This document shows positions 12,150 through 63,379 of a stretch of 64,000 nucleotides of DNA, piece after piece (positions within the stretch are counted from its first letter, which is position 1; every line of letters starts with the position of its first letter). Source of the stretch: Mustelus asterias. Taxonomy: Eukaryota. The translations under genes were made by a program, and so were the position numbers. The stretch covers positions 4,030,001 through 4,094,000 of the forward strand of contig NW_027590117.1 in NCBI RefSeq assembly GCF_964213995.1, in the 5' to 3' direction. Under the pieces are notes generated by a model. It was not told where the DNA came from and ran no database searches. It saw nothing but the letters and a program-made list of their open reading frames with translations.

Positions 12150-14740
12150 AATCCAACATCCCGGTTTAGACCGTCCTAATGTGTGCGGAACTTGGCTATC
12201 AGTTTCTGCTCAGTGACTCTGCGCTGTCGTGTGTTGTGAAGGCCGCCTTGGAGAACGCTTACCTGAAGATCCAAGGCTGAATGCCCGTGACTGCTGAAGT
12301 GCTCCCCCACAGGAAGAGAACAGTCTTGCCTGGTGATTGTCGAGCGGTGTTCATTCATCCGCTGTCGTAGCGTCTGCATGGTTTCCCCAATGTACCATGC
12401 CTCGGGACATCCTTTCTTGCAGCGTATCAGGTAGACAACGTTGGCCGAGTTGCAAGAGTATGTACCGTGTACCTGGTGGATGGTGTTCTCACGTGAGATG
12501 ATGGCATCCGTGTTGATGATCCGGCACGTCTTGCAGAGGTTGCTGTGGCAGGGTTGTGTGGTGTCGTGGTCACTTGTTCTCCTGAAGGCTGGGTAGTTTG
12601 CTGCGGACAATGGTCTGTTTGAGGTTGCGTGGTTGTTTGAAGGCAAGAAGTGGGGGTGTGGGGATGGCCTTGGCGAGATGTTCGTCTTCATCAATGACAT
12701 GTTGAAGGCTCCGGAGGAGATGCCGTAGCTTTTCCGCTTCGGGGAAGTACTGGACGACGAAGGGTACTCTGTCCACCGTGTCCCGTGTTTGTCTTCTGAG
12801 GAGGTCGGTGCGGTTTTTCACTGTGGCACGTCGAAACTGTTGATCGATGAGTCGAGCGCCATATCCTGTTCTTATGAGGGCATCTTTCAGCGTCTGGAGG
12901 TGTCTGTTGCGATCCTCCTCATCCGAGCAGATCCTGTGTATTCGGAGGGCTTGTCCGTAGGGGATGGCTTCTTTTACGTGTTTAGGGTGGAAGCTGGAGA
13001 AGTGGAGCATCATGAGGTTATCCGTGGGCTTGCGGTACAGTGAGGTGCTGAGGTGACCATCCTTAATGGAGATGCGTGTGTCCAAGAATGCAACCGATTC
13101 CGGAGAGTAGTCCATGGTGAGTCTGATGGTGGGATGGAACTTGTTGATGTCATCATATAGTTTTTTTCAGTGATTGCTCACCATGACTCCAAAGGAAGAA
13201 AATGTCATCGATGTATCTAGTGTATAGCATCGGTTGAAGGTCCTGTGCGGTGAAGAAGTCTTGTTCGAACCTGTGCATGAAGATGTTGGCATATTGAGGT
13301 GCGAATTTTGTCCCTATGGCTGTTCCTTGTGTCTGGATGAAGAACTGGTTGTTGAAGGTGAAGATATTGTGATCCAGGATGAAGCGGATGAGTTGTAAAA
13401 TTGCATCTGGAAACTGGCAGTTGACGGCATTGAGTACTGAGGCCGTTGCAGCAATGCCATCATCGTGGGGGATGCTGGTGTAGAGTGCCGAGACATCCAT
13501 TGTGACGAGGAGTGCTCCTGGTTCAACTGCTCCATGTGTGTTGAGTTTCTGTAGGAAGTCCGTAGTGTCGCGACAAAAGCTGGGGGTTCTTTGTACAATG
13601 GGTTTCAAGATGCCCTCGACATAGCCGGAGAGGTTCTCGCACAGGGTTCCGTTTCCTGAAACGATGGGACGGCCGGGTGTGTTTGCCTTGTGTATTTTTG
13701 GGAGGCAGTAGAGATCTCCAACGCGTGGAGTACGTGGGATGAGAGCACGGAGGGTGCTCTGAAGGTCCGGATCAAAGGTTTTGATCAGAGTGTTGAGTTG
13801 ACGGGTGTGTTCTTTGGTCGGATCTGTGGGTAACTGTCTGTAGTGTTCCTCATTGTTCAGTTGTCGGTACACTTCTTTGCAGTAATCCCTTCTGTTCAGT
13901 ATGACGATGGCCCCTCCTTTGTCTGCTGGTTTGATGACAATGTTGCGGTTGGTCTTGAGAGCGTGGATGGCGTTGCGTTGTGCTTGGGTGATGTTCGGTG
14001 CTGTCTTGTGAGTGCGGCTGATGAATTTGGTGTTGACGCACCTCCTGATGGCTTGGGCATACATGTCAAGTCGAGGGCAGCGGCCTTCCGGAGGAGTCCA
14101 ATTCGACTCTTTCCTCTTCGGTTGCACTGCGGGTCTCTCTGTCTGCTGTTCCGGTTCATTAGCTGTCTCATTGTGTTCGCTGTTGGCCTCTTGGGGTTTG
14201 TGGAAGAACTCCCGCAGCCTCATTCGCCTGATGAATTCCTCTGTGTCCGCTGCGAGACTGATGGGGTCTATTTTGGTAGTGGGGCAAAAGTTGAGCCCTC
14301 GGCTGAGAACTTCGATTTCATCTGGCTGAAGTGTGTAGTCCGATAGGTTGACAATGGACTTTCCTGCAGTGGTACTGTTTTCTACTGTGATACCGGGGGA
14401 GGCTTGGTTGCTGCTGGTGGTGATGCCGAGTTTCTCAAGTTTCCTGTTCTTGGTGTGCATGTAGATGGTGTCGTTCCTTTGTCTCGTCTGCTTGGCAGAG
14501 TTTCGCAGCTGGTCTGCGTCCTGAGCGCAGGTTGAGACTATGGATTCGATCTTGGTTTCCAGGCTGCGGCGTTTGCTGTAGAGTTGGTGTATGAGGTGTT
14601 TGAGGAGGGTGAGAGAGGTGTGACGGCACAGTCTCTCAGCGTAGTCCGTGTTAAAGGTTGACCTGAGTGGGTTCGTGATCCGTAGTCCTTTCGGTATCTT
14701 GTCTGCTTTCTTGCATGTTTGTAGAAACTTGATGTCTGTA
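12150..14740 (-). pseudogene. Penelope RT/GIY-YIG ORF broken by frameshifts (~13160, ~12575) and a stop (~12177)
   Basis: Three consecutive ORF segments 13153-14740, 12570-13115 and the distal part of 12176-12700 in different frames. Confidence 0.85.
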
Positions 14741-14752
14741 ACAGAGACCACT

Positions 14753-14789
14753 CCATCTGACGAAGGAGCATTGCTCCGAAAGCTTATGG
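14753..14789 (+). ncRNA. Minimal type I hammerhead ribozyme in Penelope pLTR (mirror copy on - strand at ~11888-11924)
   Basis: ccatCTGACGAaggagcattgctccGAAAgcttatgg: core intact, helix II ggagc/gctcc, helix I ccat/atgg, palindromic helix III. Confidence 0.8.
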
Positions 14790-15304
14790 TATTTGCTACC
14801 AAATAAACCTGTTGGACTTTAACCTGGTGTTGTGAGACTTCTTATTATAACGGGGCCAGGTTTAAAAACACAAAAGCAAAGAGTCACGACCCGAAACGTT
14901 AACTCTGTCTCTCTCTCTCTCTTCACAAAAGCTGCCGGAGCTGCTGATTATTTGCAGCATTTTCTGTTTTGATTCCATATTTCAAAGCTCCGGGTTTGTG
15001 GAAACTCTTGTGTGTGAAGGGCGGCTCTGGAAGGGTTTGTGTGGGGAGCTGTGTTTCGCTTCCATTGTTCATAAACGGGTTGAAATTGGCGGTTGCAGAA
15101 ACTGGAGGTGGAGCTGAAAGATCAGGGGCCGTTCTGTGTGTGTGTGTCAGTCCGGCTCTCTCCTCCCTCCCGCTCTGTGTTTAATCTTCACTCTGTCTCC
15201 TCCCCTCTCTGCTCTCACTCCGCCTTTCTGAGTCAGGTCGGGGCGGGCTGTATAAAAGGAGCCTGAAAAAGTTCCTGTCTCATATTGCGCAGTGATCTGA
15301 GTGA

Positions 15305-20008: not shown

Positions 20009-23000
20009 TGATGCGCGTCAATTGAACACGAGGCACGAAGCTTCGGTAACAGAAGGCTTTTATTGTCTAACAATGGAACTAATAGAACGTAAACACACTA
20101 TCCCAGACTGACGAGGTCCCGCCCGAGCAGGGGGTCTTATACCTCTCCCAGGAGGCGGAGCCCGACTGGGATGTGCCACAACAGTAACAACCACAGGTGT
20201 ATTAATCCCACAGTGGGAACCAACGATGGTTCACCACATTCACCCCTCCTTTGAGAACAAAGGCCGGCGGGGTACGAAAACAGACTAAAATGTCAACAGA
20301 TTATAAGTTCAGACGGTCTGGAGGACCGCACCATCGTTGTGACCTCCTCAATACCGGCGGTGACACCGGAGTAGGTGCTTGCGGTGGCGTTCTCCCCAAA
20401 ACAGCGTCCAGCTGTTCCCCCACGGACTCACAGGCCGGTTGACCCTGATGAAGCGGTAGTGCAGGGGATCCCGGTACACTCTGCGATGGCGCCGATCTCC
20501 GGGGCTCAGGCAAGCTGTGCATTGGAGTAAAACTGTTAAGCACTGGTCCCGGTGCTGTCCGCGCCACGTCCGGGGGAGAAATAAGGGATTCGTCACTGGG
20601 GGTATGGGAGCGACAGGAGTTGCTACGTCCCCTGCGGGCGCCAGGTCTCGGATCGAGACTGTGTCCTCTCGCCCGTCAGGATATGCCACATAGGCATACT
20701 GAGGGTTGGCGTGGAGGAGGTGGACCTGTTCGACCAAGGGGTTGGACTTGCGGGCCCTTACCTGTCGCCGCAGAAGGACGGGTCCTGGGTACGTCAACCA
20801 GGCTGGTAAAGATATCCCCGAGGACGACTTCTGAGGGAATGAGAACATCCTCTCGTGGGGAGTAGCATTGGTTGCCGTACACAGGAGGGAGCGAATGGAG
20901 TGAAGCGCATTAGGGAGGACCTCCTGCCAATGGGAGACTGGAAGGCCTTTGGACTTCAGCGCCAATAGGACAGCCTTCCAGACTGTAGCATTCTCTCTTT
21001 CCACCTGTCCATTACCCCTAGGGTTGTAACTCGTGGTCCTACTAGAGGCAATCCCGCATGAGAGCAGGAATTGCCTCAAGTCATTACTCATGAACGACGA
21101 GCCCCTGTCGCTATGGATATAGCTGGGGTACCCGAACAGGGTAAAAAGATCACGGAATGCCTTGATCACCGTGGCAGTCGACGTGTCCGCGCAGGGGACA
21201 ACAAATGGGAACCGGGAGTACTCATCTATTATGTTCAGAAAGTACACGTTCCGATCTGTTGAGGGAAGGGGGCCCTTAAAATCCACACTCAGCCTCTCGA
21301 AGGGGCGAGTGGCCTTGACCAAATGTGCCCGGTCAGGTCGGTAACAGTGCGGTTTGCATTCCGCGCAAATCCGACAGCTCCTTGTCACCGACCTGACGTC
21401 CTCCACCGAGTAAGGCAGGTTGCGGGCTTTGATAAAGTGGTAGAGCCGAGTGACCCCAGGATGGCACAGGTCATTATGGAGGGCGTTCAAGCGATCCTCC
21501 TGCATAGTAGCGCATGTTCCGCGCGAGAGGGCGTCCGAGGGCTCATTGAGTTTCCCTGGACGATACATAATATCGTAGTTATAGGTGGAGAGTTCAATTC
21601 TCCACCGCAAGATCTTATCATTCTTGATCTTGCCCCTCTGCGTGTTGTTGAACATGAACGCCACGGACCGCTGGTCCGTGATCAGAGTGAACCGCTTCCC
21701 CGCCAGGTAATGGCGCCAGTGTCTGACGGCCTCCACAATGGCCTGGGCCTCCTTTTCCACCGCTGAATGCCGAATTTCGGGGCCTTGGAGGGTGCGGGAA
21801 AAAAACGCGATGGGCCTGCCCGCCTGGTTCAGTGTGGCGGCCAGGGCGAAATCAGATGCATCGCTTTCCACCTGAAAAGGGATGGATTCGTCTACCGCGT
21901 GCATCGTGGCTTTCGCGATGTCGTGTTTCAATTCCTTGAAGGCCAATTGGGCCTCTGGCGTGAGTGGAAAAGTCGTGGACTTAATAAGCGGACTGGCTTT
22001 GTCCGCGTAGTTAGAGACCCACTGCGCATAATAGGAGAAGAAGCCTAGGCATCTTCTCAGTGCTTTTGCGCTAGCGGGCAAGGGAAGTTCAGCAGGGGGG
22101 CGCATACGGTCGGGATCAGGGCCAATGACCCCGTTTTCCACCACGTATCCCAGGATGGCTAACCGGCACGTATGGAATACACACTTCTCCCTATTCGAGG
22201 TCAAATTCAGGCGAGATGCAGTGCGTAAAAAGTTCTGGAGATTTGTGTCATGGTCCTGCTGATCACGGCCGCAGATGGTGACATTATCCAGGTACCGGAA
22301 GGTAGCCCGCAGCCTGTTCTGGTCCACCATTCGGTCCATAGCACGCTGGACGACCGAGACCCCATTGGTGACACCAAATGGAACCCTAAGAAACTGATAC
22401 AGACGACCATCCGCCTCAAAGGCCGTGTAGTGTCGGTCCTCTGGGCGAATGGGGAGTTGGTGGTAGGCGGACCAAAGGTCTATGGTGGAGAACACCCGGT
22501 ACTGCGCAATCTGATTGACCATATCAGATATGCGCGGGAGGGGATACGCATCCAGCTGCGTATATCGATTAATGGTCTGACTGTAATCAATGACCATCCG
22601 GGGTTTGTTCCCGCTCTTGACCACCACAACCTGTGCTCTCCACGGACTAACACTGGGCTGTATGATCCCTTCTTTGAGGAGTCGCTGAACCTCAGATCTG
22701 ATGAAGATCCGATCTTCAGTGCTGTAACGCCTACTTTTAGTAGCAATGGGCTTGCAGCCTGGTACCAGATTCTTGAATAAAGAGAGTGTGGTGATCTTTA
22801 ATGTAGAAAGATTGCATGCGGGGCGCTTTGGACAATTTGGAGACTGCAGCTGTTCCCCTACTGTCAGCGAAGGGAGTGGCCCACCGTACTGTAGGATCAC
22901 ACTCTTCATGTGGACCATAAAGTTTAGTCCGAGGAGAATTGGTGCGCAAAGATGCGGCAACACAAGGAGCCTGAATCGCTCGTAAATTGTGCCTTGCACT

Positions 23001-24571
23001 TTCAAGGTTACCACACAACGTCCTAGCACAGGGACAGACCGGGACCTTGATGCCATAGAGATTGTCTGTTTGGCAGGTTGAATCTGGAGTCCACACCTCT
23101 TTACAATGTCAGGGTGAATAAAGCTCTCAGTGCTCCCGCTGTAAAACAGACAATAAATTGCACGACCATTTACCTGTATATCCATCATTGAACAGTCAAG
23201 CCTGTGGTGCTTAGCCTGGTTCAGGGTGATCGACGCCACCGTTGGTCCGTGAACGTCACTGCAGGCAGCTGAGGTCGATGCTGAGGACCCCTGCTGGTCG
23301 CTCATGGTCATCGTCGACCAAAATGGCCGCCCCCATGAATCGCACATGGTTGAGGGCGCCAAACGTAGCGACTCCTGGTGGTCATCCTCCTCCGACTCCG
23401 TCGACCACAATGGCGTCGTCCTGGACTCGCACGTGGACGAACCCCGTGAGTACTTCGACGTCGATGGTGATGATCCCCGTTCCGAAGGGTCACAGGCTGC
23501 ACTGCCGTTCTTGGGCTTCGATCTGCACACCTTCGCATAATGCCCCTTTTTACCGCATAGGTTACAGACCACCGCTTTAGCGGGACACTTTTGTCGTGGA
23601 TGCTTGGCTCCTCCGCAGAAGTACCACCGCGGGCCGCATGGGGCAGCAGCCGTCGTCGGGTCTACATGGGAGCACGCCATAACACTGCACTTCGAGCCCG
23701 TGAGGCGAGGAGGGATTTGCGACTGCTCCTGCCACGTTGTCTCCACGTGGTCCTCCGGATACAGGACCAAGCTCTTCGAAGCCGCCTCAAGCATTTCAGC
23801 CAATTCCATAGCTTGGGTCAGGTTGAGATTTCCCTTTTCTAGCAGCTTGAGACGGATGTATGAAGACCCTACCCCTGCCACAAACGCATCTCGGGTGAGG
23901 TCATACATGTACTGCTCAGCCGACACAGCTTTGCAGTCACAGCCCCTGGCAAGCTGCAAGAGCTCATTGGCGTAATCCTCCATGGTTTCGCCCGACTGCT
24001 GACGTCGTGTAGCGAGGAGGTAACGAGCGTGGATCTCGTTGGGAGGTTTCGTGTAGCGCTTTTTTAAAAGCTCGAGGGCCCTCGGGTAAGTGGTGGCTGC
24101 ACGGATCGCGAGGTAGACTGTGTCGCTTACCCTCGAATGGAGGACCCGGAGTCTGTCATCATCTGTGGTGACCGCTGCGGAGGCTGCCAGGTAGTCTTCA
24201 AAACACTTCAGCCAGTGGTCGAAGGTGTTAGAAGCGCCCACCGCACGTGGATCTAGCGTCAGACGTTCTGGCTTTAGGATTTGCTCCATACTCTCCTTTC
24301 TTTTTCCCTTCCGTCGAGAGCTTAATGTCAGACAATAAAATTGATGCGCGCCAATTGAACACGAGGCACGAAGCTTCGGTAACAGAAGGCTTTTATTGTC
24401 TAACAATGGAACTAATAGAACGTAAACACACTTTCCCAGACTGACGAGGTCCCGCCCGAGCAGGGGGTCTTATACCTCTCCCAGGAGGCGGAGCCCGACT
24501 GGGATGTGCCACAACAGTAACAACAACAGGTGTATTAATCCCACAGTGGGAACCAACGATGGTTCACCACA
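20009..24571 (-). mobile_element. Full-length Ty3/Gypsy LTR retrotransposon (Mag-like) with 5-bp TSD GTGAA
   Basis: 230-bp TG..CA LTRs at 20009-20238 and 24342-24571 (3 mismatches seen); PPT aaaggaggggtgaa next to the 3' LTR; gtgaa at 20004-20008 and 24572-24576. Confidence 0.96.
20348..24289 (-). CDS. Gag-Pol polyprotein (Gag with Zn knuckles, protease, RT, RNase H, integrase); probable C-terminal frameshift near 20580
   Basis: CNLCGKKGHYAKVC, FYSGS, RMVIDY, YLDNV, SDASD, HPGV..C..C, VDFKGP, SDRG, GQVER; likely start MEQILKP at 24289. Confidence 0.92.
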   Translation of the reverse strand: MEQILKPERLTLDPRAVGASNTFDHWLKCFEDYLAASAAVTTDDDRLRVLHSRVSDTVYLAIRAATTYPRALELLKKRYTKPPNEIHARYLLATRRQQSGETMEDYANELLQLARGCDCKAVSAEQYMYDLTRDAFVAGVGSSYIRLKLLEKGNLNLTQAMELAEMLEAASKSLVLYPEDHVETTWQEQSQIPPRLTGSKCSVMACSHVDPTTAAAPCGPRWYFCGGAKHPRQKCPAKAVVCNLCGKKGHYAKVCRSKPKNGSAACDPSERGSSPSTSKYSRGSSTCESRTTPLWSTESEEDDHQESLRLAPSTMCDSWGRPFWSTMTMSDQQGSSASTSAACSDVHGPTVASITLNQAKHHRLDCSMMDIQVNGRAIYCLFYSGSTESFIHPDIVKRCGLQIQPAKQTISMASRSRSVPVLGRCVVTLKVQGTIYERFRLLVLPHLCAPILLGLNFMVHMKSVILQYGGPLPSLTVGEQLQSPNCPKRPACNLSTLKITTLSLFKNLVPGCKPIATKSRRYSTEDRIFIRSEVQRLLKEGIIQPSVSPWRAQVVVVKSGNKPRMVIDYSQTINRYTQLDAYPLPRISDMVNQIAQYRVFSTIDLWSAYHQLPIRPEDRHYTAFEADGRLYQFLRVPFGVTNGVSVVQRAMDRMVDQNRLRATFRYLDNVTICGRDQQDHDTNLQNFLRTASRLNLTSNREKCVFHTCRLAILGYVVENGVIGPDPDRMRPPAELPLPASAKALRRCLGFFSYYAQWVSNYADKASPLIKSTTFPLTPEAQLAFKELKHDIAKATMHAVDESIPFQVESDASDFALAATLNQAGRPIAFFSRTLQGPEIRHSAVEKEAQAIVEAVRHWRHYLAGKRFTLITDQRSVAFMFNNTQRGKIKNDKILRWRIELSTYNYDIMYRPGKLNEPSDALSRGTCATMQEDRLNALHNDLCHPGVTRLYHFIKARNLPYSVEDVRSVTRSCRICAECKPHCYRPDRAHLVKATRPFERLSVDFKGPLPSTDRNVYFLNIIDEYSRFPFVVPCADTSTATVIKAFRDLFTLFGYPSYIHSDRGSSFMSNDLRQFLLSCGIASSRTTSYNPRGNGQVERENATVWKAVLLALKSKGLPVSHWQEVLPNALHSIRSLLCTATNATPHERMFSFPQKSSSGISLPAWLTYPGPVLLRRQVRARKSNPLVEQVHLLHANPQYAYVAYPDGREDTVSIRDLAPAGDVATPVAPIPPVTNPLFLPRTWRGQHRDQCLTVLLQCTACLSPGDRRHRRVYRDPLHYRFIRVNRPVSPWGNSWTLFWGERHRKHLLRCHRRY

Positions 24572-32298: not shown

Positions 32299-32659
32299 AA
32301 TTCCCTACAATTCCAATTCCAATTTATACCAATCTTACCCATGTAACTGTCTAAATGCTTTTTAAAAGACAAAATTGTACCTACCTCTACGACTGCCTCT
32401 GGCAGCTCGTTCCAGACACTCACAACTGTGTGTGTGAAAACCCTCTGGTTCTGGGTTCCTAGTCCATGAATCAGAAAAGGCTAATATAGATGTGCAGCAA
32501 ATAATTAGGAATGCAAATAGAATGTTATTGCTTAATGTGAGGAATTGTAGGGAATTGATGCTTCACTTGAACAGAACGAGGTGAGACCACATCTGGAGGA
32601 TTGTATACAGTACTGGTCCCCTTATCGAAAGAAAGATGTAAACACGTTAGAAGCAGTGT

Positions 32660-33352
32660 CAGTGTGCAATGAATACTCTCTCAATCTATCAGCGTGTGTG
32701 CGTGAAGAATCAACTCTCTCAATCTATTACTGTATGGGTGTGGAATTAACTCTCAATCTATTAGTGTGAGAGTGTGGAATTAACTCTTTCTCAACCTATT
32801 ACTGTGTCTCAGTGTGTAATTAACTCTATCTTAATCTAGTGCTGTGTTTGGGTGGAATTAACCCTCTAACAATCTATTACTGTCTGTGTGTGTGTGGAAT
32901 TAAAACTCTCTCAATCTAACAGTGTGTGTGGGTGTGGAATTAACTTTCTCTCAATCAGTTGCTGTGTGTCGGTGTGGAATTAACTCTATCTTAATCTATT
33001 ACTGTGAGAGAGTGTGCAAGTAACACTGACAATCTATTAGTGTGTGTGAGTGTGTGGTTAACTCTCTCTCTCAGTCTATTGCTGTGAGAGAGTGTGGAAT
33101 TAACTCTCCCTCTCAATCTATTACTGTGTGAGAGTGTGTTGAATTAACTAGCTGACAATATATTACTGTGTGTGTGTGTGTATGTGGAACTAACTCTCTC
33201 TCAATCTATTACTGTGTGAGAGTGCGTGGAATTAACGAGCTGACAATATATTACTGTGTGTGTGTGTGTATGTGTGTGTGTGGAACTAACTCTCAATCTA
33301 TTACTGAGTGAGTGTGTGTGTGGTGTGTGTGGAACTAACTCTCTCTCAATCT

Positions 33353-33392
<40 letters not shown>

Positions 33393-34890
33393 AGTTGACT
33401 CTCTCAATCCATTAGTGTGTGAGAGCGGCAATTATAATTGTCTCAATCTACTACTGTGTGTCAGTGTGGCAGAAACTCTCTCTCAATCTATTACTATGTG
33501 AGAGTGTGGCAGTAACTCTCTGACAATCTATTACTATGTGAGAGTGTAGAATTATCACTCTCTCAATCTGTTACTGTGTGTAGAATTAATTCTCTCTCAA
33601 TCTATTAAGGTGTGTGAGTGTGTAATTAACCCTCTGTCAGTCTATTACTGTGTATGAGTGTCGAATTAACTCTCTCAATCGATTAGTGTGTGAGTGTAGA
33701 ATTAACTCTCTCACTCCATTACTGTGTGTGAGTGTGGAAATGACTCTCTTCTATTACTTTATCGATTACTGTGCAGAATTAACTCTCTCAATCTATTATT
33801 GTATGTGAGTGTGGAATTAACTCTATCCTATTACTGTTTGTGCATGTGTGCGTGTGTGTGGAATTAACTCTCTCTCAATCTATTCCTCTGTGTGATTGTG
33901 GAAGTAGCTCTCTCAATCTATTGCTGTGTGTGTGTGGAATTAACTCTCTCTCAATCTATTGCTCTGTCAGTGTGGAATTAACTCTCTCACAATCTATTAC
34001 TGAGTGTGAGTGTGGAATTAACTATCTCTCAATCTATTACTGAGTGCAAGTGTGCAAATAATACTCTCTCAATCTATTACTGTGTGAGAGGGTGGAATTA
34101 ACTCACATCTATTACTAGGTGCGAGTGTGGAATTAACTCCCTCTCAATCTATTCCTCAGAGTGTGTGGAATTAACTCTCTCTCAATCGATTACTGAGTGT
34201 GAGTGTGGAATTAATTCTCTCTCAATTTATTACTGTGTGAGAGGGTGGAATTAACTCCCATCTATTACTATGCATGAGTGTGGAATTAACTCCCTCTCAA
34301 TCTATTACTATGTGATAGTGTGGAATTAACCGTCTCAATCTGTTAGTGTGTGTGTGTGGAATTAACACCCTCTGAATTGAATTGTGAGAGAGTGTGGAAT
34401 TATCTCTCTCAATCTATTACTGTGTGCGAGTGTGCAATGAATAATCTCTCAATCTATCACTGTGTGAGTGTGTAATTAACTCTCTCTCAAACTATTACTG
34501 TGTTTCAGTGTGGAATTAACTCTCAATCTATTACTGTGTGTCAGTGTGGAATTGACTCTCTCTCAATCTATTGCACTGTGTGCGAGCGTGGAATTAACTG
34601 TCTCTCACTGTATTGTTGTGTGTGAGGATGGAAGAACTCTCTCTCAATCTATTACTGTGTGAGAGTGTGGATGTAACTCTCTCTCAATATGTTACAGTGT
34701 GAGAGTGTGAAATTGACACTCTCTCAACCAATTACTGTGTATGTGTAATTAACTCCCTCTCAAACTATTACTGAGTGTGAATGTGGAATTAACTCTCTCT
34801 CAATCTGTTACTGTGTGATTGTAGAAATAACTCCCTAGCTATCTATCAATAATGTATGCAATTAACTGTCAGTCTCTGTTACTGTATGGA
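32660..34890. repeat. Degenerate satellite, ~38-42 bp unit
   Basis: gtgtggaattaactctctctcaatctattactgtgtgaga repeated dozens of times with variable (GT)n/(CT)n. Confidence 0.93.
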
Positions 34891-40972: not shown

Positions 40973-41392
40973 TTATAGCTCCGGGAGGAATGGAGGTGCG
41001 GACATTGCTGATTGGTCACTTTGTTGCTGCCTCTCAGCATCTTGTTCATATGACCAATCAGAAATCTGCTTAACTCACCAATCCGGAGAGCCCACGGAGT
41101 GAGGGCGGAAAATAACGGCGCCAAAATCTCAGATTCGAACCGATTTCATTTCAAACTGTAAAAGCCACCAAAGCGGAAAGAACAAGAGTTTCGAAAATTA
41201 TACGAATAGGTAATGGTTAATTAATTTTGAGTAATGTAAGAATCTCCCTTTCTCTCCTTCCCCAGTCTATAGTTAACCTGTATCTGGCAGTTTCTGATTT
41301 TCAGCCTGGGCTTTTCGGAAAATAAGTCGAAAATAACAAACCGTTGCTGATCGTGAAATCTGAATTCAAATTTCCTTTCCTTTACCCCAATT

Positions 41393-42018
41393 CCGTCGGG
41401 ACCTGGGGTGGAGGGTGATGCATGCAGCAGTTCCGCACAACCGTAGGATTCACTGGTTCACGGGCTCCGAAGACTGCCCTTTCTTCGGCCTTGTGGAGTC
41501 CGTGGACCATGTCTATGTTGTGTGTCTTAGGCTGCACTCCCTTTATGTTTTCCTAAAGAACCTTTTGTTGATGTTTTGTTTGCACTTCAGTCCCACGCTC
41601 CTGATCTCCGGACACCCGGTGCGGAGAGGGGAGGGTCGGATGGCGACCTCCTCGTGAACCTGCTCCTGGGCCTGGCGAAACGCGCCATTTACCGGGCCAG
41701 GCTGCGGGCGATCGAGGGGGCCGTCCATCCTGACTGTCTTCCCCTCTACCGCGGCTACGTTCGCGGCCAGGTGTCCCTGGAGAGGGAGCATGCGGTGTCC
41801 ACGGGCGAGGTTGACGCTTTCCGCGCCCGCTGGGTACCGCAGGGGTTGGGGTGCATTATTGGCCCTAATAATCACATTTTAATTTTATGTTTTTAAGTTT
41901 CCTTTGTACTTTGATTTCTGTTCGGGCTGTTCCCCCTCCTTTTTGGGGAGCTGCCCCTTTTACTTTGTCCTGATTTAATCTGAGTTTGTTTACTTGGTTT
42001 GGTTTGACCTAAAAAGAG
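41393..42018 (+). mobile_element. Tx1/L1-clade LINE 3' fragment
   Basis: DLGWRVMHAAVP..CPF..ESVDHVY..C (zinc-binding region), LLLGLAKRAIY..FRARW; T-rich 3' UTR ending aaaaagag. Confidence 0.75.
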
Positions 42019-42812
42019 GACAACACCTACATTTAAAAAAAATCTCCCTTTCTCTCCTTCCCCAGTCTATAGTTAACCTGTATCTGGCAGTTTCGGATTT
42101 TCAGCCTGGACTTTTCGGAAAATAAGTCGAAAATAACAAAATTTTCACTATTCATTTTTGAAAAGTTCGCAGATGTATTTATAAAACAAGAAATACATTT
42201 CAAATAAAATCTCTCAATAATTAACTGTTGAACAACAAAGTGTTTAAAACATCAGTATCTGTTTGCACCATTTCACATTTTATCCCAAGTTGCAGATTTG
42301 CTTTTAGAATCCTGGATCCATTCGGGGTTAATCTCGGCCCTTTTTAAAACTCTCGAACTCGCCGCCAGAAAGTCTCATTGACATCGTTCTGTAAACGGAC
42401 GGGATGTTCTCCATATTCGTGAGAATCAAGAGGGGAGTGAACATTTTCGGTGTAAATTGACCAGTGCCGAGACTGAGGTTCCTGCACAATCGGGGCTGAT
42501 AGGGAATAAACTGATCGATTATCAAGACCAAACTGGAACAGAATTGGAAGCTGACACATTTGCTCCATTCGCTCTCTCTCTCTCTCTCTAAAGTCGGGGA
42601 AACGGGCCTCTGAGATCTAAGTGCGGAGGCGGTCGGAAACCAATTAATTAATTAATGAAACATTATTAATCAGACGCTGGGCGATCAACTTGCATTACTC
42701 AGTACCTATCATTGATCAACAGTAAAAACAATTAGATTGTTCGAGACGCTTCAGAGTGAAAGATTAATTGAAACTAAATGGATGATACAGCTTTTTCAGG
42801 GAGATTGTGAGT

Positions 42813-42862: not shown

Positions 42863-43237
42863 TTACTTGGAGCTGGTGTACTTAGTCACCGCCTTTGTCC
42901 CTTCCGACACGGCGTGCTTGGCCAGTTCCCCGGGCAGCAGCAGGCGCACGGCGGTCTGGATCTCCCGGGAGCTGATGGTGCTGCGCTTGTTGTAATGGGC
43001 CAGGCGGGAAGCCTCACCCGCGATGCGCTCGAAAATATCGTTCACGAACGAGTTCATGATGCTCATGGCCTTGGAGGAGATGCCGGTGTCGGGGTGAACC
43101 TGCTTCATCACTTTGTAGATGTAGATGGAGTAACTCTCCTTCCTCGACTTTCGCCGCTTCTTCCCGCCCTTTATTACCGGTTTCTTAATCACTTTCTTCG
43201 CCCCCTTCTTAGGAGCTGCTTTCTTCTCATCCACCAT
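42863..43237 (-). CDS. H2B: Histone H2B, copy 1 (124 aa)
   Basis: [39 protein letters not shown]; octamer-like ATTAGCAT and CATAAAA upstream. Confidence 0.98.
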
Positions 43238-43423
43238 TGTCACAGTTAATTTCAGACACAGAATCACTGAGTCGCGCTCGGAACTCCTCTTTTATGGATC
43301 AAAGCAGAGGCCTATGCTAATGAAGGATTGCTGAAAGCCCTGTTCCCCATTGGCTCATTCACAATGATGTCAATTCGTGACGCTCTCTCTCTGATTGGTT
43401 AGTTCAGATACACAAACACATAG

Positions 43424-43748
43424 TTTTTTTTATACTTTTCCAATTCAATCAAATCTAATTCAGAGTCTCAACAAGTTGAGACATTTCAGATCCAGGCTGA
43501 CAAGACAGGACGGGAGACCAAAACCACCCTGTCCTGGGCCTGATCGACATGAGTCAAGCTGATTGGAGAAGGGGGAGGATCCTCCTCCAAGACTTGAGCT
43601 CATTTGCATCTTAGCCAAAAGGCCGAGATGCCGCTTTTAAAAATTGCTTCATATGAAACATATGAAGCCTCAGCGTAACCTAATGACCTCAACCAAGTGC
43701 AGGCAATCCATACTACACTTGATCTGAGCCAAAAGGCCGAGAAGCGAT
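43424..43748 (-). mobile_element. U2 snRNA-headed, structured, A-tailed SINE-like element (copy 1)
   Basis: 43748-43710 equals U2 nt 1-39 (one mismatch); internal U2 nt 7-27 at 43628-43608; several hairpins; A8 tail. Confidence 0.8.
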
Positions 43749-45071
43749 GTGGATTTGAGCAGCAACCAGCCTGTTGTCAATCCGTCCTTTCCCCTTGTCC
43801 GCCCCGATCCACCCAATCCCCTGACTCTCTCACTCCCTCTGCCGCACCAGCGCATTCTCTCTGCTGCTAATTCCACATCACTCTATCAGACTGCTGATAC
43901 TGTTCATACATTTCCCCTTCCTCACCAGCACCAACTGCTCTGCTTTACTTCCGCCCATCACCGGGAGCTGGCAGTGTACAATATCTGGGCGTGTGGAAGG
44001 GGAATAAGTTTGATGAGCAACAGCCACATTGACATTGTTGCTAAAACAAAAAGCTGATTGCAAGAAGGAGTGGAATCAGAATTGGATATTACTGGCTACA
44101 AGCCTTGATACGGTTCCACACCAGAGGCAAATAAAGAAAATGAGAGCACGTGGAATGGTGGGGGCTGGGTGGGTGGGTGGGTGGCTGGGTGGGCGGGCGG
44201 GGGGGGGGGGGGGGGCTGGGGGAGAGAATGTCCTGGAATAGACTGAGAACGAGCTGATGGACAGAAAACTGAGAGTCGGAACAAATGGGTCATTTTCAAG
44301 TTAGCAGACTATGACAAGTGGGCTACCACAAGGATCAGTGTTTGGGCCACTGCTTTCTACAATCTGTGTATCAATGATTTGGGATTAAAGGTAATATTTC
44401 CAAATTGGTAGCTGTCACAAACAAGGTGGATGTGTGAGTTGTGAGAAGGAGGCAAAGACTCTTTGTGTGTATTTGAAGAGGCTGAGCGAATGGGCAACAA
44501 TTTTGCAGATAGAAGCAATGCGGAGAGATATGAGGAGATTTAATCATTAAATATGTTCATGAGTGAGATTGATAGATTTCTACATATCAAAAACATCAAG
44601 GGTTACGGGGATAGTTCAGGAAAATGGTGTTGAAGTGGAAAATCAGTCATGATTTCACTGTATGGCAATGTAGACTCGAAGAGCCGAATGGCCGACACTT
44701 GCTCCAATTTCTTATCTTCTAATTATGTTTTAGCATGGTCATCATTCTGTGACTGTAATTAACGATAAATGAGTACAAGGTACTTCTTGTATCCTGTCAC
44801 AATATGACTGTGGCTTTAAAAATAGAACAGAGCATGTCCATAGCTAGTGACTGACCTCCTATTTTCCAACAGACTTTCCACAATTGAATTCCACATTTAG
44901 GTAAGGGATGGAATACTCTCCACTCACTGGTCAGTGCACCTCCAACAACACCAAAGAATCTCAGAAACAAATCTAGTTTTTGGTTTCACTTGCAAACCAT
45001 TCACCAGCTTCAGCATTTACTCCCTCAACCATTCATACACAGTGTGCACCATTTGTGAAGTACACTGCAAG

Positions 45072-48737: not shown

Positions 48738-49427
48738 CAGATGTCGTGATGCCGGCATTGGACTGGGGTGGGCACGGTAAGAAGTCTCACAACACCAGGT
48801 TCAAGTCGAACAGGTTTATTTGGTAGCACGAGCTTTCGGAGCACTTCTCCTTCCTCAGGTGAGTGGAGAATTGGGTTCACAAACAGAGCATATATTTTTT
48901 TTATACTTTTCCAATTCAATCAAATCAAATCCAATTCAGAGTCTCAACAAGTTGAGACATTTCAGATCCAGGCTGACAAGACAGGGCGAGCGACCAAATC
49001 ACCCTGTCCTGGGCCTGATCTACATGAGCCAAGCTGATTGGAGAAGGGGGAGGTTCCTCCTCCAAGACTTGAGCTCATTTGCATCTTAGCCAAAAGGCTG
49101 AGATGCCGCTTTTAAAAAATTGCTTCATATGAAACACACGAAGCTTCAGTGCAACCCAATGACCTCAACCAAGCGCAGCCGACCATACTACACCTGATCT
49201 CAGCCAAAAGGCCAAGAATGAATCAGCTCATCAGCTGACTATTACATCACTCTGTGATTGGTTCCATGCTTTGTTGGGTCAGCTGACCCTTACATCTTGT
49301 TCCCATTGGTCACATTACATCCAATCAAAGTTGTCCCCGGTTACACTCCAACAAGGAGCAGCGTGCTGAAAGCTCATGCCACCAAAAAATCCAGATGGAC
49401 TTTAACCTGGTATTGTGAGACTACTTG
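48738..49427. mobile_element. Non-autonomous Penelope-derived element with inverted pLTR ends, 11-bp TSD and nested U2-headed element
   Basis: ctagaacaaat at 48727-48737 and 49428-49438; hammerhead cacCTGAGGAaggagaagtgctccGAAAgctcgtg on - strand ~48827-48861. Confidence 0.75.
48895..49218 (-). mobile_element. U2 snRNA-headed SINE-like element (copy 2, lacks first 5 nt)
   Basis: Collinear with 43424-43748 over its whole length. Confidence 0.8.
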
Positions 49428-52269: not shown

Positions 52270-53500
52270 TTTAAAGTTCTTTGAGGAGGCAAAAGGAAGT
52301 TCGATAAAGGAGAACCAGTGGACGTGATTTATTTAGATTTCCAGAAGGCCTTCTGACACGGTGCGGAGTCGGAGACTGTTAAATAAGTTAAGAGCCCATG
52401 ATGTTAAGGGTAAGATCCAGGCATGGATAGAGGATTGGCTGACTGGCAGAAGGTGGGGATAAAGAGGTCTTTTTCAGGATGGCAGCCGATGTTGAGTGGT
52501 GTGCCTCAGGGATCAGTGCTGGGACCACAACTTTTCACCATATACATTAACAATTTGGAAGCAGGAAGTGAAAGCTCTGTTGCTAAGTTTGCAGATGATA
52601 CAAAGACATGGAGAGGGACAGGTAGTACTGAGGAAGCAGGGAGGCTGCAGAAGGACTTGGACAGGCTAGGAGAGTTGGCAAAGAAGTGGCAGATGGAATA
52701 CAATGTGGAAAAGTGTGAGGTTATGCACTTTGGAGGGAGGAATGGAGGCATAGACTATTTTCTAAATGGGGAAATGCTGAGGAAATCAGAAGCGCAAAGG
52801 GACTTGGGAGTCATTGTTCAAGATTCTCTTAAGGTTAACCGGCAGGGTCAGTTGGCAGTTCGGAAGGCAAATGCAATGTTAGCATTCATGTCGAGAGGGA
52901 TACAATATAAGAGCAGTGATGTACTTCTGAGGCTGTACAAGGCTCCAGTCACACCCCATTTGCAGTATTGTGAGCAGCTTTGGGCCCCGTATCTAAGGAA
53001 GGATGTGCTGGCCTTGGAAAGGGCCCAGAGGAGGTTCACAAGAATGATCTCTGGAATGAAAAGCTTGTCATATGAGAAACGGTTGAGGACTCTGAGTCTG
53101 TACTCATTGGAGTTCACAAGGATGAGGGGGGACCTTGTTGAAACTTATAGGATACTGTGAGGCCTGGATAGAGTGGACATGGAGAGTTTGTTTCCAAAAT
53201 CAGGAAAAACTAGAACCAGAGGGCACAATCTCAGGCTAAAGGGACGATCCTTTAAAACAGAGATGTGGAGTAATTTGTTCAGCCAGGGACTGGTGAATCT
53301 GTGGAACTCTTTGTTGCAGAAGGCTGTGGAGGCCAAGTCATTGAGTGTTTTTTAAGACAGAGATAGGTAGACTTGATTAATAAGGGGACCAGGGATTATG
53401 GGGAAAAGGCAGAATGAGGAAGAGAAAAATATCAGTCATGATTGGCGGATAAGACTCGATGGGCCGAGTGGCCTAATTCTGCTCCGATAACTTATGGTCT
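52270..53500 (+). mobile_element. CR1 RT 3' half inserted in the 36-bp satellite
   Basis: [28 protein letters not shown]; satellite-type units on both sides. Confidence 0.85.
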
Positions 53501-53502
53501 CA

Positions 53503-54060
53503 CACACTATCAGAGTGAGTAAATCCCGCAATCACACACTGTATCAGAGAGTGAGTAAATCCCACACTCTCACACTGTATCAGAGAGTGAGTAAATCCCA
53601 CACTCTCACACTGTATCAGAGAGTGAGTAAATCCCACACTCTCACACTGTATCAGAGAGTGAGTAAATCCCACACTCTCACACTGTATCAGAGAGTGAGT
53701 AAATCCCACACTCTCACACTGTATCAGAGAGTGAGTAAATCCCACACTCTCACACTGTATCAGAGAGTGAGTAAATCCCACACTCTCACACTGTATCAGA
53801 GAGTGAGTAAATCCCACACTCTCACACTGTATTAGAGTGAGTAAATCCCCCACACACACACTGTATCAGAGAGTGAGTAAATCCCGCACTCACACACGGT
53901 ATCAGAGAGTGAGTAAATCCCACACTGTATCAGAGAGTGAGTAAATCCCACACGGTATCAGAGAGTGAGTAAATCCCACACTCTCACACTGTATCAGAGA
54001 GTGAGTAAATCCCACACTCTCGCACTGTGTCAGAGAGTAAGTAAATCCCACACTCACGCA
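53503..54060. repeat. 36-bp minisatellite
   Basis: gtatcagagagtgagtaaatcccacactctcacact, near-perfect central copies. Confidence 0.95.
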
Positions 54061-54246
54061 CATTACCAGAGATTCACAGTTCCTGAAGGAATCCCACACT
54101 CCCGCACAGTTCTTCTGTGGAGAAGGGTCCCTCACACCGACAGCCAGGCGACATTTCCCGTTGGATCTTTTTTTTTAAGTGTTTAAATCACCATCTTTAA
54201 TTTACTTAGGACAAAACAGCTTTAACTATACCCTCCATGTTCAGTG

Positions 54247-54555
54247 TCAATTTGCTGATTCAGTGACTTTATTTGGTCTGCGCCCTTGAAACAATTTTCT
54301 GTTTCTCTGAACTTGAAGCTTTGCCCCTTCAAGGAGGCGTGGTTCCTTCTGCAGTGCATTCTGAAGCCCTTCTTCTGTATTGAAGCCAACCCAACAGAAT
54401 CCTCTACGAAATCCAGTCTCTTTTTCGAATGGAAGAAGACATTTCTTTACTAATCCAAACTGTCCAAAATATTCTTTGATTTCTTTGCCGGCCAGGGTCC
54501 AGGGCACCCGCGACACGAAGATCTCGAAGCTCTTTCTGGAAGGAGCCGCCGCCAT
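54247..54555 (-). CDS. SLIRP: Processed (intronless) retrocopy of SLIRP, mitochondrial RRM protein; ORF intact (102 aa)
   Basis: FVSRVPWT..KEYFGQFG.V.KC.LPF.KETGF.RG..WV.F..EEGLQNALQ matches the SLIRP RRM; ATTAAA, A9 tail and 15-bp TSD. Confidence 0.85.
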   Translation of the reverse strand: MAAAPSRKSFEIFVSRVPWTLAGKEIKEYFGQFGLVKKCLLPFEKETGFRRGFCWVGFNTEEGLQNALQKEPRLLEGAKLQVQRNRKLFQGRRPNKVTESAN

Positions 54556-54808
54556 CTTGTAATGGCCGCCGGTCCCGGTGGATCTTTACACACTGACAAA
54601 CTGGCGCTGGAGATTCTTTGTAAAATGTATTTCCTGATTGTGGTAAGGGGGCTTGTGATTGGCGGAAACTTCTCAATCTGATTGGTCTGTTTTCATATCC
54701 ACTCAAATGAACCCCTGATAAGTGACTGTAATAACTTTCAAAATGTCGAATCACAATCATTGCTTTCCCAATTCCTCATTAGCATAGTTCTGTGGGACTG
54801 TCTATTTA

Positions 54809-59480: not shown

Positions 59481-60577
59481 ATCTCAGAGGATCATTAGTC
59501 AGTGGAATTCCCTTCCCCAGACAACAGTTGAGGCTGGATCATTGAATATGTTCTAGGCTGAATTAGACAGATTATACAAGGGAGTGAATGGTTGCTGCAA
59601 AAGTTCAAAAAGTCGATTTGCAGCCACAATGATTTCCTTGGTCCATTCATAGGATGTGTGCATCACTGGCCAGCATTTATTACCCATCCACGGATCGAGT
59701 CAACCACATTGCTGTCGCTCTGAAGTCACATGGAGGCCACACAAGATAATTTCATCAGATTTCCTGCGCTAAAGCACATTAGTGAACCAGATGGATTTTT
59801 CCAACAATGGTTCCATCGCCATCACTAGATTCTTATTTTCAAATTACTTTTTATTGACATCAAATTCGACCATCTGCTGTGGAGGGTTTCGAACCTGGGT
59901 GCCCAGAACATTAGCTGAGTTTCCAGATTAATAGTCTAGCGATGATACCTCGAGACCATCGCCTCCCCTTCTTGAATGATGGTGCAGGACTGAGGGGCTG
60001 AATGGCCTGACTCCTGTCCATATTTCTAATATGATAGTAACCGTCATAATTGATTCCATTTTATTTTGATTTTTGGTTTTCATCTTTATTTTCTCTTGAT
60101 TTTGCTTTCAGCTGGCAGCTGTTCATCATTCTTCCATTCACACCTCCTTCAGACACATCTCTGTTTGCTGTTACTTGTTCCTTTCCCACTCCCTTTAGCC
60201 TTGCAGCACCAATTATTTTATTACTTAATCACTCCTGCCCTCCACCTTGCTTTGGAAAGCACAAGACAAAAGGTTCCACTAATTTCAGTAATGAGGCGGG
60301 AGCAGGATAAATTAATAATCTGACAGTAAATAAACATCAAACACTGAGTGACCGCAATATGTTAGAGGCAGACATTCAGTGCGTGGAGAAAGGACACACG
60401 CAGGTCACAGTTTTGACCTTAAGTAAGGCCGAGAAGGGTGAAATGTGTTGTAAACTGTACATGTTAAAATCCGTCCAGCTGTGAAGAGGCGAATCAAGGG
60501 AACAATCAGAGAGACTGAAAAAAGTATTTCATACAATGTGTATCTAATGAAAGCCTGAAGAAAGGAAACTTCACGTT

Positions 60578-61140
60578 CTCTCTGCTTTGGAACTGTGCTC
60601 TCTGCTGTGGAACTGTCTTCTCTGCTGTGGAACTGTGCTCTCTGCTGTGGAACTGTGCTCTCCGCTGTGGAACTGTGCTCTCCGCTGTGGAACTGTGCTC
60701 TCCGCTGTGGAACTGTGATCTCTGCTGTGGAACTGTGATCTGTGCTATGGAACTGTGCTCTCTGCTGTGGAACTGTGCTCTCTGCTGTGGAACTGTGCTC
60801 TCTGCTGTGGAACTGTGCCCTCTACTGTGGAACTGTGATTCCTGCTGTGGAACTGTGCTCTCTGCTGTGGAACTGTGCTCTCTGCTGTGGAACTGTGCTC
60901 TCTGCTGTGGAACTGTGCTCTCTGCTGTGGAACTGTGATATCTGCTGTGGAACTGTGATCCCTGCTGTGGAACTGTGATCCTTGCTGTGGAACTGTGCTG
61001 TCTGCTGTGGAACTGTGATCTCCGCTGTGAAACTCATTTCCCTGTTGTGGAAAAGTACTCTCTGCTGTGGAACTGTGCTCTCTGCTGTCAAACTGTGATC
61101 TCTGCTGTGGAACTGTGCTCTCTGCTGTGAAACTGTGCTC
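60578..61140. repeat. 20-bp minisatellite
   Basis: ctctgctgtggaactgtgct, about 28 copies. Confidence 0.95.
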
Positions 61141-63379
61141 AGGGGTAACATTTTCCACTCTCCAAACTGCTGAGACTGTTAAAGAATGTAGACAATGTTG
61201 GATCCATTCTTCCCATTGCCACTTCCTTTCGTATCCTGTGATGTAGATTATTGGGCCTTGGAGATTTTTCAGCCCTCAGTCCCATTAATTTCTCCAGCAC
61301 TATATATTTTAGTAATATTAAATCCCCCCAATTTCTAGACCATGGTTCCCGAGCATTGCTGGGAAGTTATTTGTGTGTTCCTCCATGAAGACAGCATGAA
61401 AACACTTATTTAATTGCGCTGCCATTACCTTGTTCTCCGTTATAAATTTGCCCATATCCGAATGCAAAGCACCTAAATTTGTCTTTGTTATATTTTTTCA
61501 CACACGAACATAAGCTTTAATAGTCCAATTGTAAGCGACTTGCAAGTTCACTCTCCTACAGCATTTTATCCCTCTAATCAATCTCTTTATCCTCCTTTCC
61601 TAAAATAAAAACTGTTCCCAATCCTTGGGATTGCAACTTTTTCTTTCAACTTTATAAAAATCATCATCAGATCTAATAATACGTAATTTTATTAGCCATG
61701 ATTAGGTCATTTTTCCTGTTATGTTTCTGCGACTGAAGGAAATGTACAACTGTTACAATGCAAGCATTTCTTCCTTAAATATCAGACACTGCCTATCCAC
61801 CTTCGTGCCCCTTCATCGAGTTTCCCAATCTATTTTAGCCAACTCACCTGTAATACATTCTGAGTTTCCTTTGTTTAGAGCTGGGACTTCAGTTTAAGCT
61901 TGGATTTGAATCTTTGTTCTGACTGAAGACAGGTGTTTCACAAAGCAGACACTCAGTCTATCCAATCTAGAGCAAACCACATTGTGAGCATTGAATGTAT
62001 TCTACCAAATTGAAACATAAAACGTTCAGATACATCAATATTTCTCCTGGCCGTATAATTAAGGTCTTGAACAATGCGTACTGATAATGGAGCTTTCCAT
62101 TTGAGAAATTCTGATATTTCTTCCTTTTTCCTCAGCCACTGATCTCCCCACTCTGTGGCTGACAGCATTCTCATCTGTGTCCGCTCTTGTCCCACACCTC
62201 TGCTCTCACCCCGTCTCTATATTCTCTGTATTATGATAATGCTTTCTCCTTTAAATTACCAACTTCTTCAATGGATTAGCTCTCAGCATTTTTATCACCT
62301 CCAGCTTGTGTGATGCTGTCACCAAACATTCCTTCCCCTCCGAATACCGCAATCTTTTCCTAACAGCTTCTACGAGTCGTTTTGACTTTCCATGGCACCT
62401 GTCAAGGTGCAGCAACAGGCCTTTTACCTCCTCTCTCCTCATCAAATACCCCCTCAATGAATCCTCCTGGACTAATCATTTAAATGTAGTGTGCTGTATT
62501 TGCTGCTCACAATGTACTCTGCTCGACATTCTGATGACAGATGCACAGATTGTGGAACATTTCCATTCAGTCCACAAGTAGCACACTATTTGTGATAATT
62601 CCGATCATTTAAAATCTGTGCTTTGCTCGCACTGATCATTCTGTCCTTGGTCTTCTCTACTGCTCCAATGGAACTCATGCACTCCTGTTGATGACACAGT
62701 GCTCACTATCTTTTCTTGTACTCTTACTATTTCCTTTAGACTGTTTGCCATTTTATGCGCGTGTGTGGCACACAATCACAAACCTCCCTTTTGGTTTTTT
62801 TTGCCATCTGCCGTTCTACGTAGCATTTTCTTAAAGTCTTCGCTCACATTTGTAACTTTCACCAGTGCTGATGAAAGGATGTTGATCTGAAAGTTTAAAC
62901 CTGGTCACTATTTACCCCCGCAGGTGCATACTTGTTGTGTACATCCAGATTTTCAAAATTAAGTTTGTACTTCCAGCATTCATATTTTTTGATGTCTGCA
63001 GGCACGTTAACAGGAGTTTTCATGGAGGTGTTCAAAATCATTGGCAGCTTTAATAGAGTAAATTAGCATAAATTGTTCCTGTTACATGAGGACACTGATT
63101 CATTATGATTTGTTAAAAAAGTAACGATATTGTGAGCAAACACATGTTAACTTACATAGGTCGCTACTTTCTGTGAATCCTGAATACGCTGTCTAAAAAA
63201 CTGGGGAATCTAATGCAACATTTTTTCAAAGAGCAGTTGGAGAAAAAACGTTTTAAAGGGCGAATTTTAGGGCATAAAGAGGAAATGGGACGGATTCGCT
63301 ACGAAATCTCTGGCAGAATTCCGATGGGTTTAAATATATTCCCATATGCTTTATTATTCCATGAAATGGTGGGCAGTGT

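Follow-up and report, generated by a model that had tools for sequence, protein, structure and literature searches.

Here we describe a short non-coding element that carries a U2 snRNA head and is present twice in a window of Mustelus asterias DNA (the window being the whole stretch of 64,000 nucleotides that was analysed). We propose, with a probability of about 0.6, that it represents a short non-autonomous shark retroposon family moved by a non-LTR element that targets U2 genes, most likely a Keno-type Tx1 LINE. The best reading of the element is a SINEU-like retroposon bred inside U2 genes, the head of which is predicted to be cloaked by the element's own RNA. Such an element would place a U2-headed retroposon in cartilaginous fish and would point to a U2-targeting LINE there. 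The evidence comes from the ends of the two copies, the predicted fold of their RNA and the DNA into which they were inserted.

Two copies of a composite element

Both copies lie on the minus strand (Table 1; element numbering is that of copy 1). They agree at 309 of 343 aligned positions (90% identity), and each of the two consists of a head of U2 nt 1-39, a second U2 piece, six hairpins and an A8 tail. The initial annotation had described a two-copy unit starting exactly at U2 nt 1, and this was borne out, as the 5' end of copy 1 is U2 nt 1 at 43748, without any flank-derived extension. For copy 2, in which U2 nt 3-5 are altered, it had given 48895-49218; the 3' coordinate held, whereas the 5' limit is most likely 49223 rather than 49218. 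The hairpins that it had named were all found again, as was the A tail. One of them had been called perfect, and is so in copy 1 but contains two G.U pairs in copy 2.

Homology between the flanks stops about 13 nt past the tail, and the flanks are otherwise unrelated, copy 1 being flanked by a histone promoter and copy 2 by a Penelope-type repeat. The composite structure is thus collinear in 2/2 copies with unrelated flanks (n = 2 only), which upholds the earlier view that the unit is mobile. As judged from the letters of both copies, a discrete unit ending in A8 was inserted twice, and we have little doubt that this unit was retroposed. Searches of the 64 kb window with blastn and nhmmer found no copies beyond these two, and scans of bacterial and archaeal genomes for the element gave 0 matches, as expected. 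Two of the 14 open frames of at least 30 aa in the element were searched, and no convincing homologue was obtained; the 64-aa antisense frame had no candidate in a protein-space search, and the 58-aa sense frame gave 2 weak multi-stretch matches (E 6e-5 and 9e-5, 32-39% identity), which we judged to be low-complexity chance.

Table 1. Positions of the element, its parts, its insertion sites and neighbouring features in the window
Feature	Window position	Strand	Element nt	Remarks
Copy 1, whole element	43424..43748	-		325 nt; nearer to U2 than copy 2
U2 head	43710..43748	-		U2 nt 1-39: SL-I, U6-pairing region, branch-point recognition sequence
Hairpin 1		-	11-72	
Anti-U2 arm	43677..43702	-	47-72	pairs with head nt 11-36 (predicted)
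Hairpin 2	43646..43668	-	81-103	10 bp, 3-nt loop; at the position of U2 SL-IIb
A-U5-A run	43638..43645	-	104-111	single-stranded (predicted), Sm-site-like; start of the linker between the halves
Second U2 piece	43601..43631	-		extended SL-I hairpin; perfect octamer at 43602-43609
Hairpin 4	43549..43603	-	146-200	21 pairs
Hairpin 5	43489..43545	-	204-260	21 pairs; bears the sole two-sided change between the copies
Hairpin 6	43465..43482	-	267-284	7 bp
AT-rich 3' end and A8 tail	43424..43464	-		A8 at 43424-43431
Copy 2, whole element	48895..49223	-		329 nt; more decayed
Copy 1 target, 5' half	43749..43761	-		7/13 match to U2 nt 24-36
Copy 1 target, 3' half	43413..43423	-		one shared C, then 7/10 match to U2 nt 37-46
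Copy 2 target, 5' half	49224..49236	-		7/13 match to U2 nt 24-36
Copy 2 target, 3' half	48885..48894	-		8/10 match to U2 nt 37-46; an unrelated repeat begins here as well
Histone H2B gene	42863..43237	-		context, outside the element; start codon 187 nt downstream of copy 1
Host repeat receiving copy 2	48740..48894	-		context; terminal repeat of a Penelope-type RT/GIY-YIG element

U2-derived sequences in the element

The head of copy 1 tracks the Rfam U2 consensus to nt 39, with nt 3 as the sole departure from an upper-case consensus letter; its nt 23 is unlike both the consensus and the element's own second U2 piece. Against Rfam RF00004 copy 1 scored 47.3 bits (gathering score 46) and copy 2 scored 42.2. 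The alignment is confident over nt 1-39 only; the element lacks U2 nt 40-46, and the SL-IIa/IIb region does not appear as aligned. No other Rfam family was found in the element.

The second U2 piece begins at element nt 118. It had been taken for an exact U2 nt 7-27 set in a longer stem; a U2 piece it is, but its extent is really nt 4-33 with changes, namely T6A, an inserted G, G31A and an A at nt 23 as compared to the copy 1 head. T6A and the inserted G lengthen the stem. The changes to this piece also created a perfect octamer in both copies (at 49077-49084 in copy 2). These are 2 of the 6 octamers of the window, and the one in copy 1 precedes the H2B start codon by about 370 bp.

The AAUUUUUA run, which had been likened to an Sm site, is present in the element. 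This A-U5/6 run is predicted to be single-stranded between hairpins, and the base that follows it is A and not the G of the Rfam U2 consensus.

Predicted RNA fold and antisense arm

Both copies are predicted to fold strongly as RNA, with z-scores of -7.67 (copy 1) and -8.53 (copy 2), and 0 of 100 shuffles of each were as good. After GC correction, 1 of 392 window tiles folded better than copy 1 and 0 of 392 better than copy 2. The sole tile out-folding copy 1 sits in a tandem array with a 36-nt unit; the arrays of the window, at 53440-54131, 32655-34838 and 60455-61254, have units of 36, about 40 and 20 nt, respectively. The RNA folding energies of the two copies were -132 and -140 for the sense strand and -106 and -100 for the antisense strand, whereas DNA parameters gave near symmetric values (sense -55.5 and -54.6 vs antisense -52.0 and -47.7). 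Since the fold is strand-specific as RNA and near symmetric as DNA, the structure has most likely been shaped at the RNA level, although the computation treats naked RNA and proteins could shift it.

A stretch complementary to the head, here called the anti-U2 arm, starts 8 nt past the head-body junction in both copies. Over 26 positions the predicted head-arm pairing comprises 15 Watson-Crick and 7 G.U pairs in copy 1 and 12 and 10, respectively, in copy 2. The duplex energies were calculated to be -30.8 and -32.6 kcal/mol, as compared to shuffle means of -14.4 and -16.1, and 0 of 3000 shuffles of each reached them. The 7 G.U pairs common to both copies are all pair-keeping transitions, the chance of which is about 0.03 if the arm began as an inverted U2 copy, and one A.C mismatch in copy 1 is due to the change that the head itself carries at nt 23. 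The arm-head complementarity is significant only when G.U pairs are counted; read simply as a DNA-level inverted repeat of the head, the arm shows weak identity (83 and 517 of 2000 shuffles), and that reading was rejected.

In the predicted fold the U6-pairing and branch-point nucleotides are locked in a 22-bp hairpin in 2/2 copies (naked RNA). The pair probability of SL-I in the head was 0.000-0.001 in both copies, and forcing open the U2-like head would cost 14.0 kcal/mol in copy 1 and 10.7 kcal/mol in copy 2. For the branch-point sequence, the probability of being unpaired was 0.00-0.18 in copy 1 and 0.00-0.02 over 7 of 8 nt in copy 2. The initial annotation had suggested that the retained U6-pairing and branch-point sequences could be used on the spliceosome; this finds no support, as both are predicted to be paired with the antisense arm in 2/2 copies. 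A head so buried argues against a working spliceosomal RNA, and the modelled fold suggests a parasite of U2 genes instead. We would give slightly less than even odds to the cloaking of the head being an adaptation.

Two further observations concern the arms. The 5' arms of hairpins 1, 4, 5 and 6 (43465-43738, minus strand) carry a similar TCAA/TCAG core, like U2 nt 27-31, and a single repeated sense/antisense unit may have left all four as relics. We also considered whether the anti-U2 arm guides targeting as RNA. The 12 nt upstream of the junction could pair with the arm at 8 and 7 positions in the two copies (background P 0.064 and 0.21), and over 26 nt at 12 and 12 positions (P 0.42 and 0.49), so this candidate was not supported.

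Insertion sites resemble U2

We removed the element from each copy and compared the empty site with U2 nt 24-46, using as reference the copy 1 head for nt 24-39 and the Rfam consensus for nt 40-46. Copy 1 matched at 14/23 and copy 2 at 15/23 positions. The match peaks at the junction register among 17 offsets, the other offsets giving at most 10 and 12 matches; copy 1 needs a 1-nt overlap for this register and scores 9/23 without it. In the window background, 14/23 and 15/23 are reached at 35 and 8 of 126,558 positions, respectively. For the 5' halves (Table 1), which were tested only after the 3' halves had prompted the idea of a U2 target, the background is 3,440 of 126,618. When random junctions were allowed 0-3 nt overlap and a register shift of 3 nt either way, those equalling the two sites numbered 180 and 37 of 60,000 under strict rules and 589 and 125 of 60,000 under looser rules. 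The joint chance of both site matches was about 4e-6 to 4e-5, and 0 of 19,788 decoy 23-mers fitted both sites as well.

The junction falls at U2 36/37, not more than 2 nt upstream of the nt-39 flank given in the literature (n = 2 sites). The 3' flank of copy 2 is an unrelated repeat, which identifies this flank as target DNA. There was no target duplication of at least 5 nt at either junction, the longest common strings within 30 nt being 3-4 nt, and the element was inserted with 0-1 nt duplication at both sites. Since the empty sites are U2-like at the junction, at most 2 nt from the Keno/Utopia site, the most likely mover is a U2-targeting LINE enzyme, and we hold with good confidence that such an enzyme moves the element. 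The sites are merely 61-65% U2-like, and hence the specificity of targeting must be relaxed. The link to the Keno/Utopia target site that had been drawn from the head is strengthened by these findings, as both empty sites resemble U2 nt 24-46 in register.

Divergence between the copies

The two copies differ by 24 substitutions. In a common structure of 101 pairs, which was built to suit both copies, 1 pair is changed on both sides and 8 on one. Of the core differences, 6 of 15 break a pair vs 8.8 expected; a neutral-decay simulation did as well in 2905 of 20,000 runs (P about 0.15), which is not significant, and gave 2505 of 20,000 when weighted for CpG; for mean energy the count was 26 of 150. 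Swapping the changes of one copy into the other gave 0 of 300 in both directions, but this approach to covariation was discarded as biased, half of the differences being reversions; the pair-breaking counts of the swap test were not significant against random mutants (133 and 306 of 2000).

Relative to copy 1, copy 2 shows 8 A-to-G vs 2 T-to-C changes (P 0.019), and 6 vs 1 once CpG sites are left out (P 0.027). Seven of the 8 A-to-G changes stand opposite U in the copy 1 fold. The A-to-G excess could be a footprint of A-to-I editing at an RNA stage, an explanation that is post hoc and takes copy 1 as the nearer to the ancestor.

Transcription and genomic surroundings

Four runs of T4 or longer inside the element argue against Pol III, and no tRNA, 7SL or 5S head was matched in Rfam to E 10. 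We infer transcription from a U2 promoter. Upstream of the copies, PSE matches were 5/12 and 7/12 as compared to a background median of 7 (the consensus used is of mammalian type, which makes this a weak test for sharks), and no octamer was present within 350 nt upstream of either copy. Ribozymes gave no Rfam match to E 10, and no hammerhead core motif was found inside either copy; a hammerhead-like core just upstream of copy 2 was rejected for want of a GAAA partner in its vicinity.

Histone genes cluster in the window, as frames for H1, H4, H3, two H2A and two H2B, and between them lie LINE, Gypsy-like and Penelope-type repeats. H1 and one H2B were confirmed by Pfam, and the other histone names come from reading the translations. 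The stretch upstream of copy 2 (49224-49350, minus strand) is CCAAT-rich and promoter-like and has motifs common to the histone promoters of the window, but no gene. The repeat that received copy 2 is present at seven other places in the window. A Penelope-type element with RT and GIY-YIG lies at 11794-14844; it is frameshifted, has an inverted terminal repeat of 105 nt at 99%, and its end of about 150 nt is scattered at eight places in the window.

At 41241-42140 (plus strand) we found the 5'-truncated end of a Tx1/L1-like LINE (about 41341-42045), with a weak zf-RVT match (E 0.098). Near-perfect direct repeats of about 100 bp bound it on either side (41241-41340, 42041-42140); this duplication far exceeds usual target duplications, is TC-rich at its start and lies some 300 bp upstream of an H2A gene. 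The fragment is single-copy in the window, and its C-terminal frame gave no match in a protein search. It was rejected as the partner LINE, its tail not being significantly element-like (275 and 96 of 2000 shuffles). A Gypsy-like LTR element (20009-24571, classed from reading its translation) has 99% identical direct repeats and a 1373-aa frame. An intronless SLIRP copy with an open frame (54247-54585, minus strand) stands head-to-head with H2B across a CCAAT-rich region and is possibly a retrogene on a histone-type bidirectional promoter; its identity is 91% to a Scyliorhinus canicula cluster and at most 83% to the other 119 among the best 120 of 132 matches, which marks the host as a shark.

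Proposed origin and alternatives

The head of the element is the upstream half of its own U2 target, and it ends at nt 39, adjoining the Keno/Utopia site. We think it fairly probable that a master copy resides inside a U2 gene. Masters would occupy U2 genes at about nt 36-39, and Pol II would transcribe them from the U2 promoter, giving an RNA that begins at U2 nt 1. By folding, this RNA would form six hairpins, in which nt 47-72 hide the U6-pairing and branch-point sequences. A LINE protein would bind the structured body or tail, nick U2 or U2-like DNA and reverse-transcribe from the A8 end. R2 RNAs carrying up to 36 nt of upstream target are reported to give uniform 5' junctions (PMC3774820). 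By analogy with R2, the cDNA of the head would anneal to the upstream target in a real U2 gene, leaving a seamless junction and a new promoter-bearing master. At degenerate sites the whole unit with its head would be inserted with 0-1 nt duplication and no snRNA promoter, as the two copies at hand indicate, and such copies would be dead ends that decay. The cloak would most likely be kept to stop a transcript of the U2 promoter from behaving as a faulty U2 snRNA.

For SINEU, transcription was left open in the original account, as snRNA promoters lie outside the transcript (PMC4494074). A head that is the upstream half of the target offers a testable answer to that question, the promoter being regained with each landing in a U2 gene. 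It would also show how a spliceosomal promoter can be used safely, with the U2 piece folded away. A stronger version holds that hijacked U2 genes yield the RNA in abundance, capped and Sm-loaded, and that its arm can leave the element's head to pair with real U2 snRNA (about -31 kcal/mol). We regard this version as improbable; if true, it would mean a U4-like anti-U2 RNA born from a parasite, which either tethers U2 RNA for new heads or modulates the supply of U2 snRNP in sharks.

A SINEU-type chimera, again moved by a U2-targeting LINE, could have obtained both of its U2 pieces from template jumps and have relied on a flanking host promoter. Recurrent 5' addition of U1/U2 pieces is reported for SINEU-1 and SINEU-2, for which flanking promoters were proposed (PMC4494074). 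In the shark element the inner of the two U2 pieces (nt 4-33) has the look of an earlier head and stops at nt 33, short of the target, which template jumping fits better than insertion into a U2 gene; both copies adjoin CCAAT-rich, promoter-like DNA, and the anti-U2 arm could have held U2 snRNA beside the 5' end of the body. It is the outer head that makes this origin doubtful, since copy 1 begins exactly at U2 nt 1 without a flank-derived extension and the head ends at nt 39 beside the inferred cut site, whereas a jump could end anywhere.

That the copies derive, as retro-pseudogenes, from a host snRNA that is a long U2 paralogue with an Sm ring and acts in or on the spliceosome appears quite improbable. 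The first 180 nt of copy 1 do reach the Rfam U2 gathering score, with a hairpin-U-run-hairpin order at the position of the Sm site, the predicted structure is strong and strand-specific, and variant U2 RNAs are expressed in humans (PMC8457000). However, the confident RF00004 alignment covers nt 1-39 only, with nt 40-46 absent, and the branch-point sequence is predicted to be paired and not looped out, while formation of the branch helix reportedly needs a loop toehold (PMC13019295). The Sm-like run has no G, and such deviations are described as lowering Sm loading (PMC8457000). Insertion at U2-like DNA speaks instead for an element that travels specifically with a U2-targeting enzyme. Of the traits expected from a working U2 gene, neither an upstream PSE/DSE (a weak test) nor an accessible SL-I and branch-point sequence (a naked RNA prediction) was found. 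Fish-specific U2/U6-like snRNAs have reportedly been described, and no argument here rests on that report.

The body could also be the 3' end of an autonomous, 5'-truncated Keno LINE, each copy having acquired its U2 head independently. An A tail, U2-like target sites and the lack of an ORF would fit a LINE 3' UTR, but the same head-body junction and the same head-complementary arm occur in both copies, and independent truncations would not coincide in this way, which makes this origin highly unlikely. That a single insertion was copied inside the histone cluster, through local duplication or gene conversion, is hardly credible even though the copies lie within 5.5 kb in a window with duplicated histone genes, as homology stops at the element ends, the sites agree with each other at 11/23 positions and each resembles U2 more (14/23 and 15/23), and copy 2 sits in an unrelated repeat.

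Comparison with known systems

A literature search by title and start of abstract, with Repbase, Dfam and most subscription papers outside it, found no paper on a shark U2-headed element, and the element may already carry a database name. Compared with U2 snRNA (RF00004), it has the sequence of nt 1-39 and nt 4-33 and the order of hairpin, U-run and hairpin. Unlike U2 snRNA, it has no U2 sequence past nt 39, a head predicted to be sequestered, no G after the U-run, a length of 325 nt with an A tail, and no PSE-like match upstream.

The likeness to SINEU is closer. A U1/U2-derived head, a short non-coding body, a 3' poly(A) and a repeated composite structure (n = 2) were all found in the shark element. 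Like SINEU-1, -2 and -3 as described, it is shorter than 500 nt, has a U2-derived head and more than one snRNA-derived piece, and ends in poly(A); it also shares with them oligo-T runs that exclude Pol III, little or no target duplication and a probable Keno-related Tx1 mover (PMC4494074). SINEU is reported from crocodilians only and prefers Mariner-N4_AMi (PMC4494074, Kojima 2015), whereas the shark element lands at U2-like sites. The antisense arm and the hairpin array are absent from the available part of the SINEU description, the comparison being one of descriptions and not of body sequences.

Keno and Utopia have a common 3' flank from U2 nt 39 (PMC4640811), and the Keno site is placed 37 nucleotides into U2 (PMC6136364). 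The shark element shares their U2 target region within 2 nt. Reptile Utopia is weakly specific and also lands on U2-like sequences outside U2 genes, as the shark element does, but it makes 20-bp duplications (PMC4640811, PMC6136364), which are not seen at the shark copies. We favour a Keno-type Tx1 LINE over Utopia because Keno is known from fish, as well as from frogs, lancelet and hydra, the Utopia table gives only reptiles among chordates (PMC4640811), and the duplications of reptile Utopia are absent here. Keno and Utopia are autonomous, with RT and endonuclease, whereas in the shark element no searched ORF had a convincing homologue, and the upstream target serves as its head.

R2 offers a further parallel. 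The RNA of R2 is reported to be freed by an HDV-like ribozyme, and no ribozyme family was matched in the shark element; should the U2 start site itself form the RNA's 5' end, it would not require one. Like the R2 SIDEs, the shark element would be a non-autonomous passenger of a site-specific LINE that relies on the promoter of the target gene (PMC3414825), and like R2 with 28S-derived 5' ends it would carry upstream target sequence at the 5' end of its RNA (PMC3774820).
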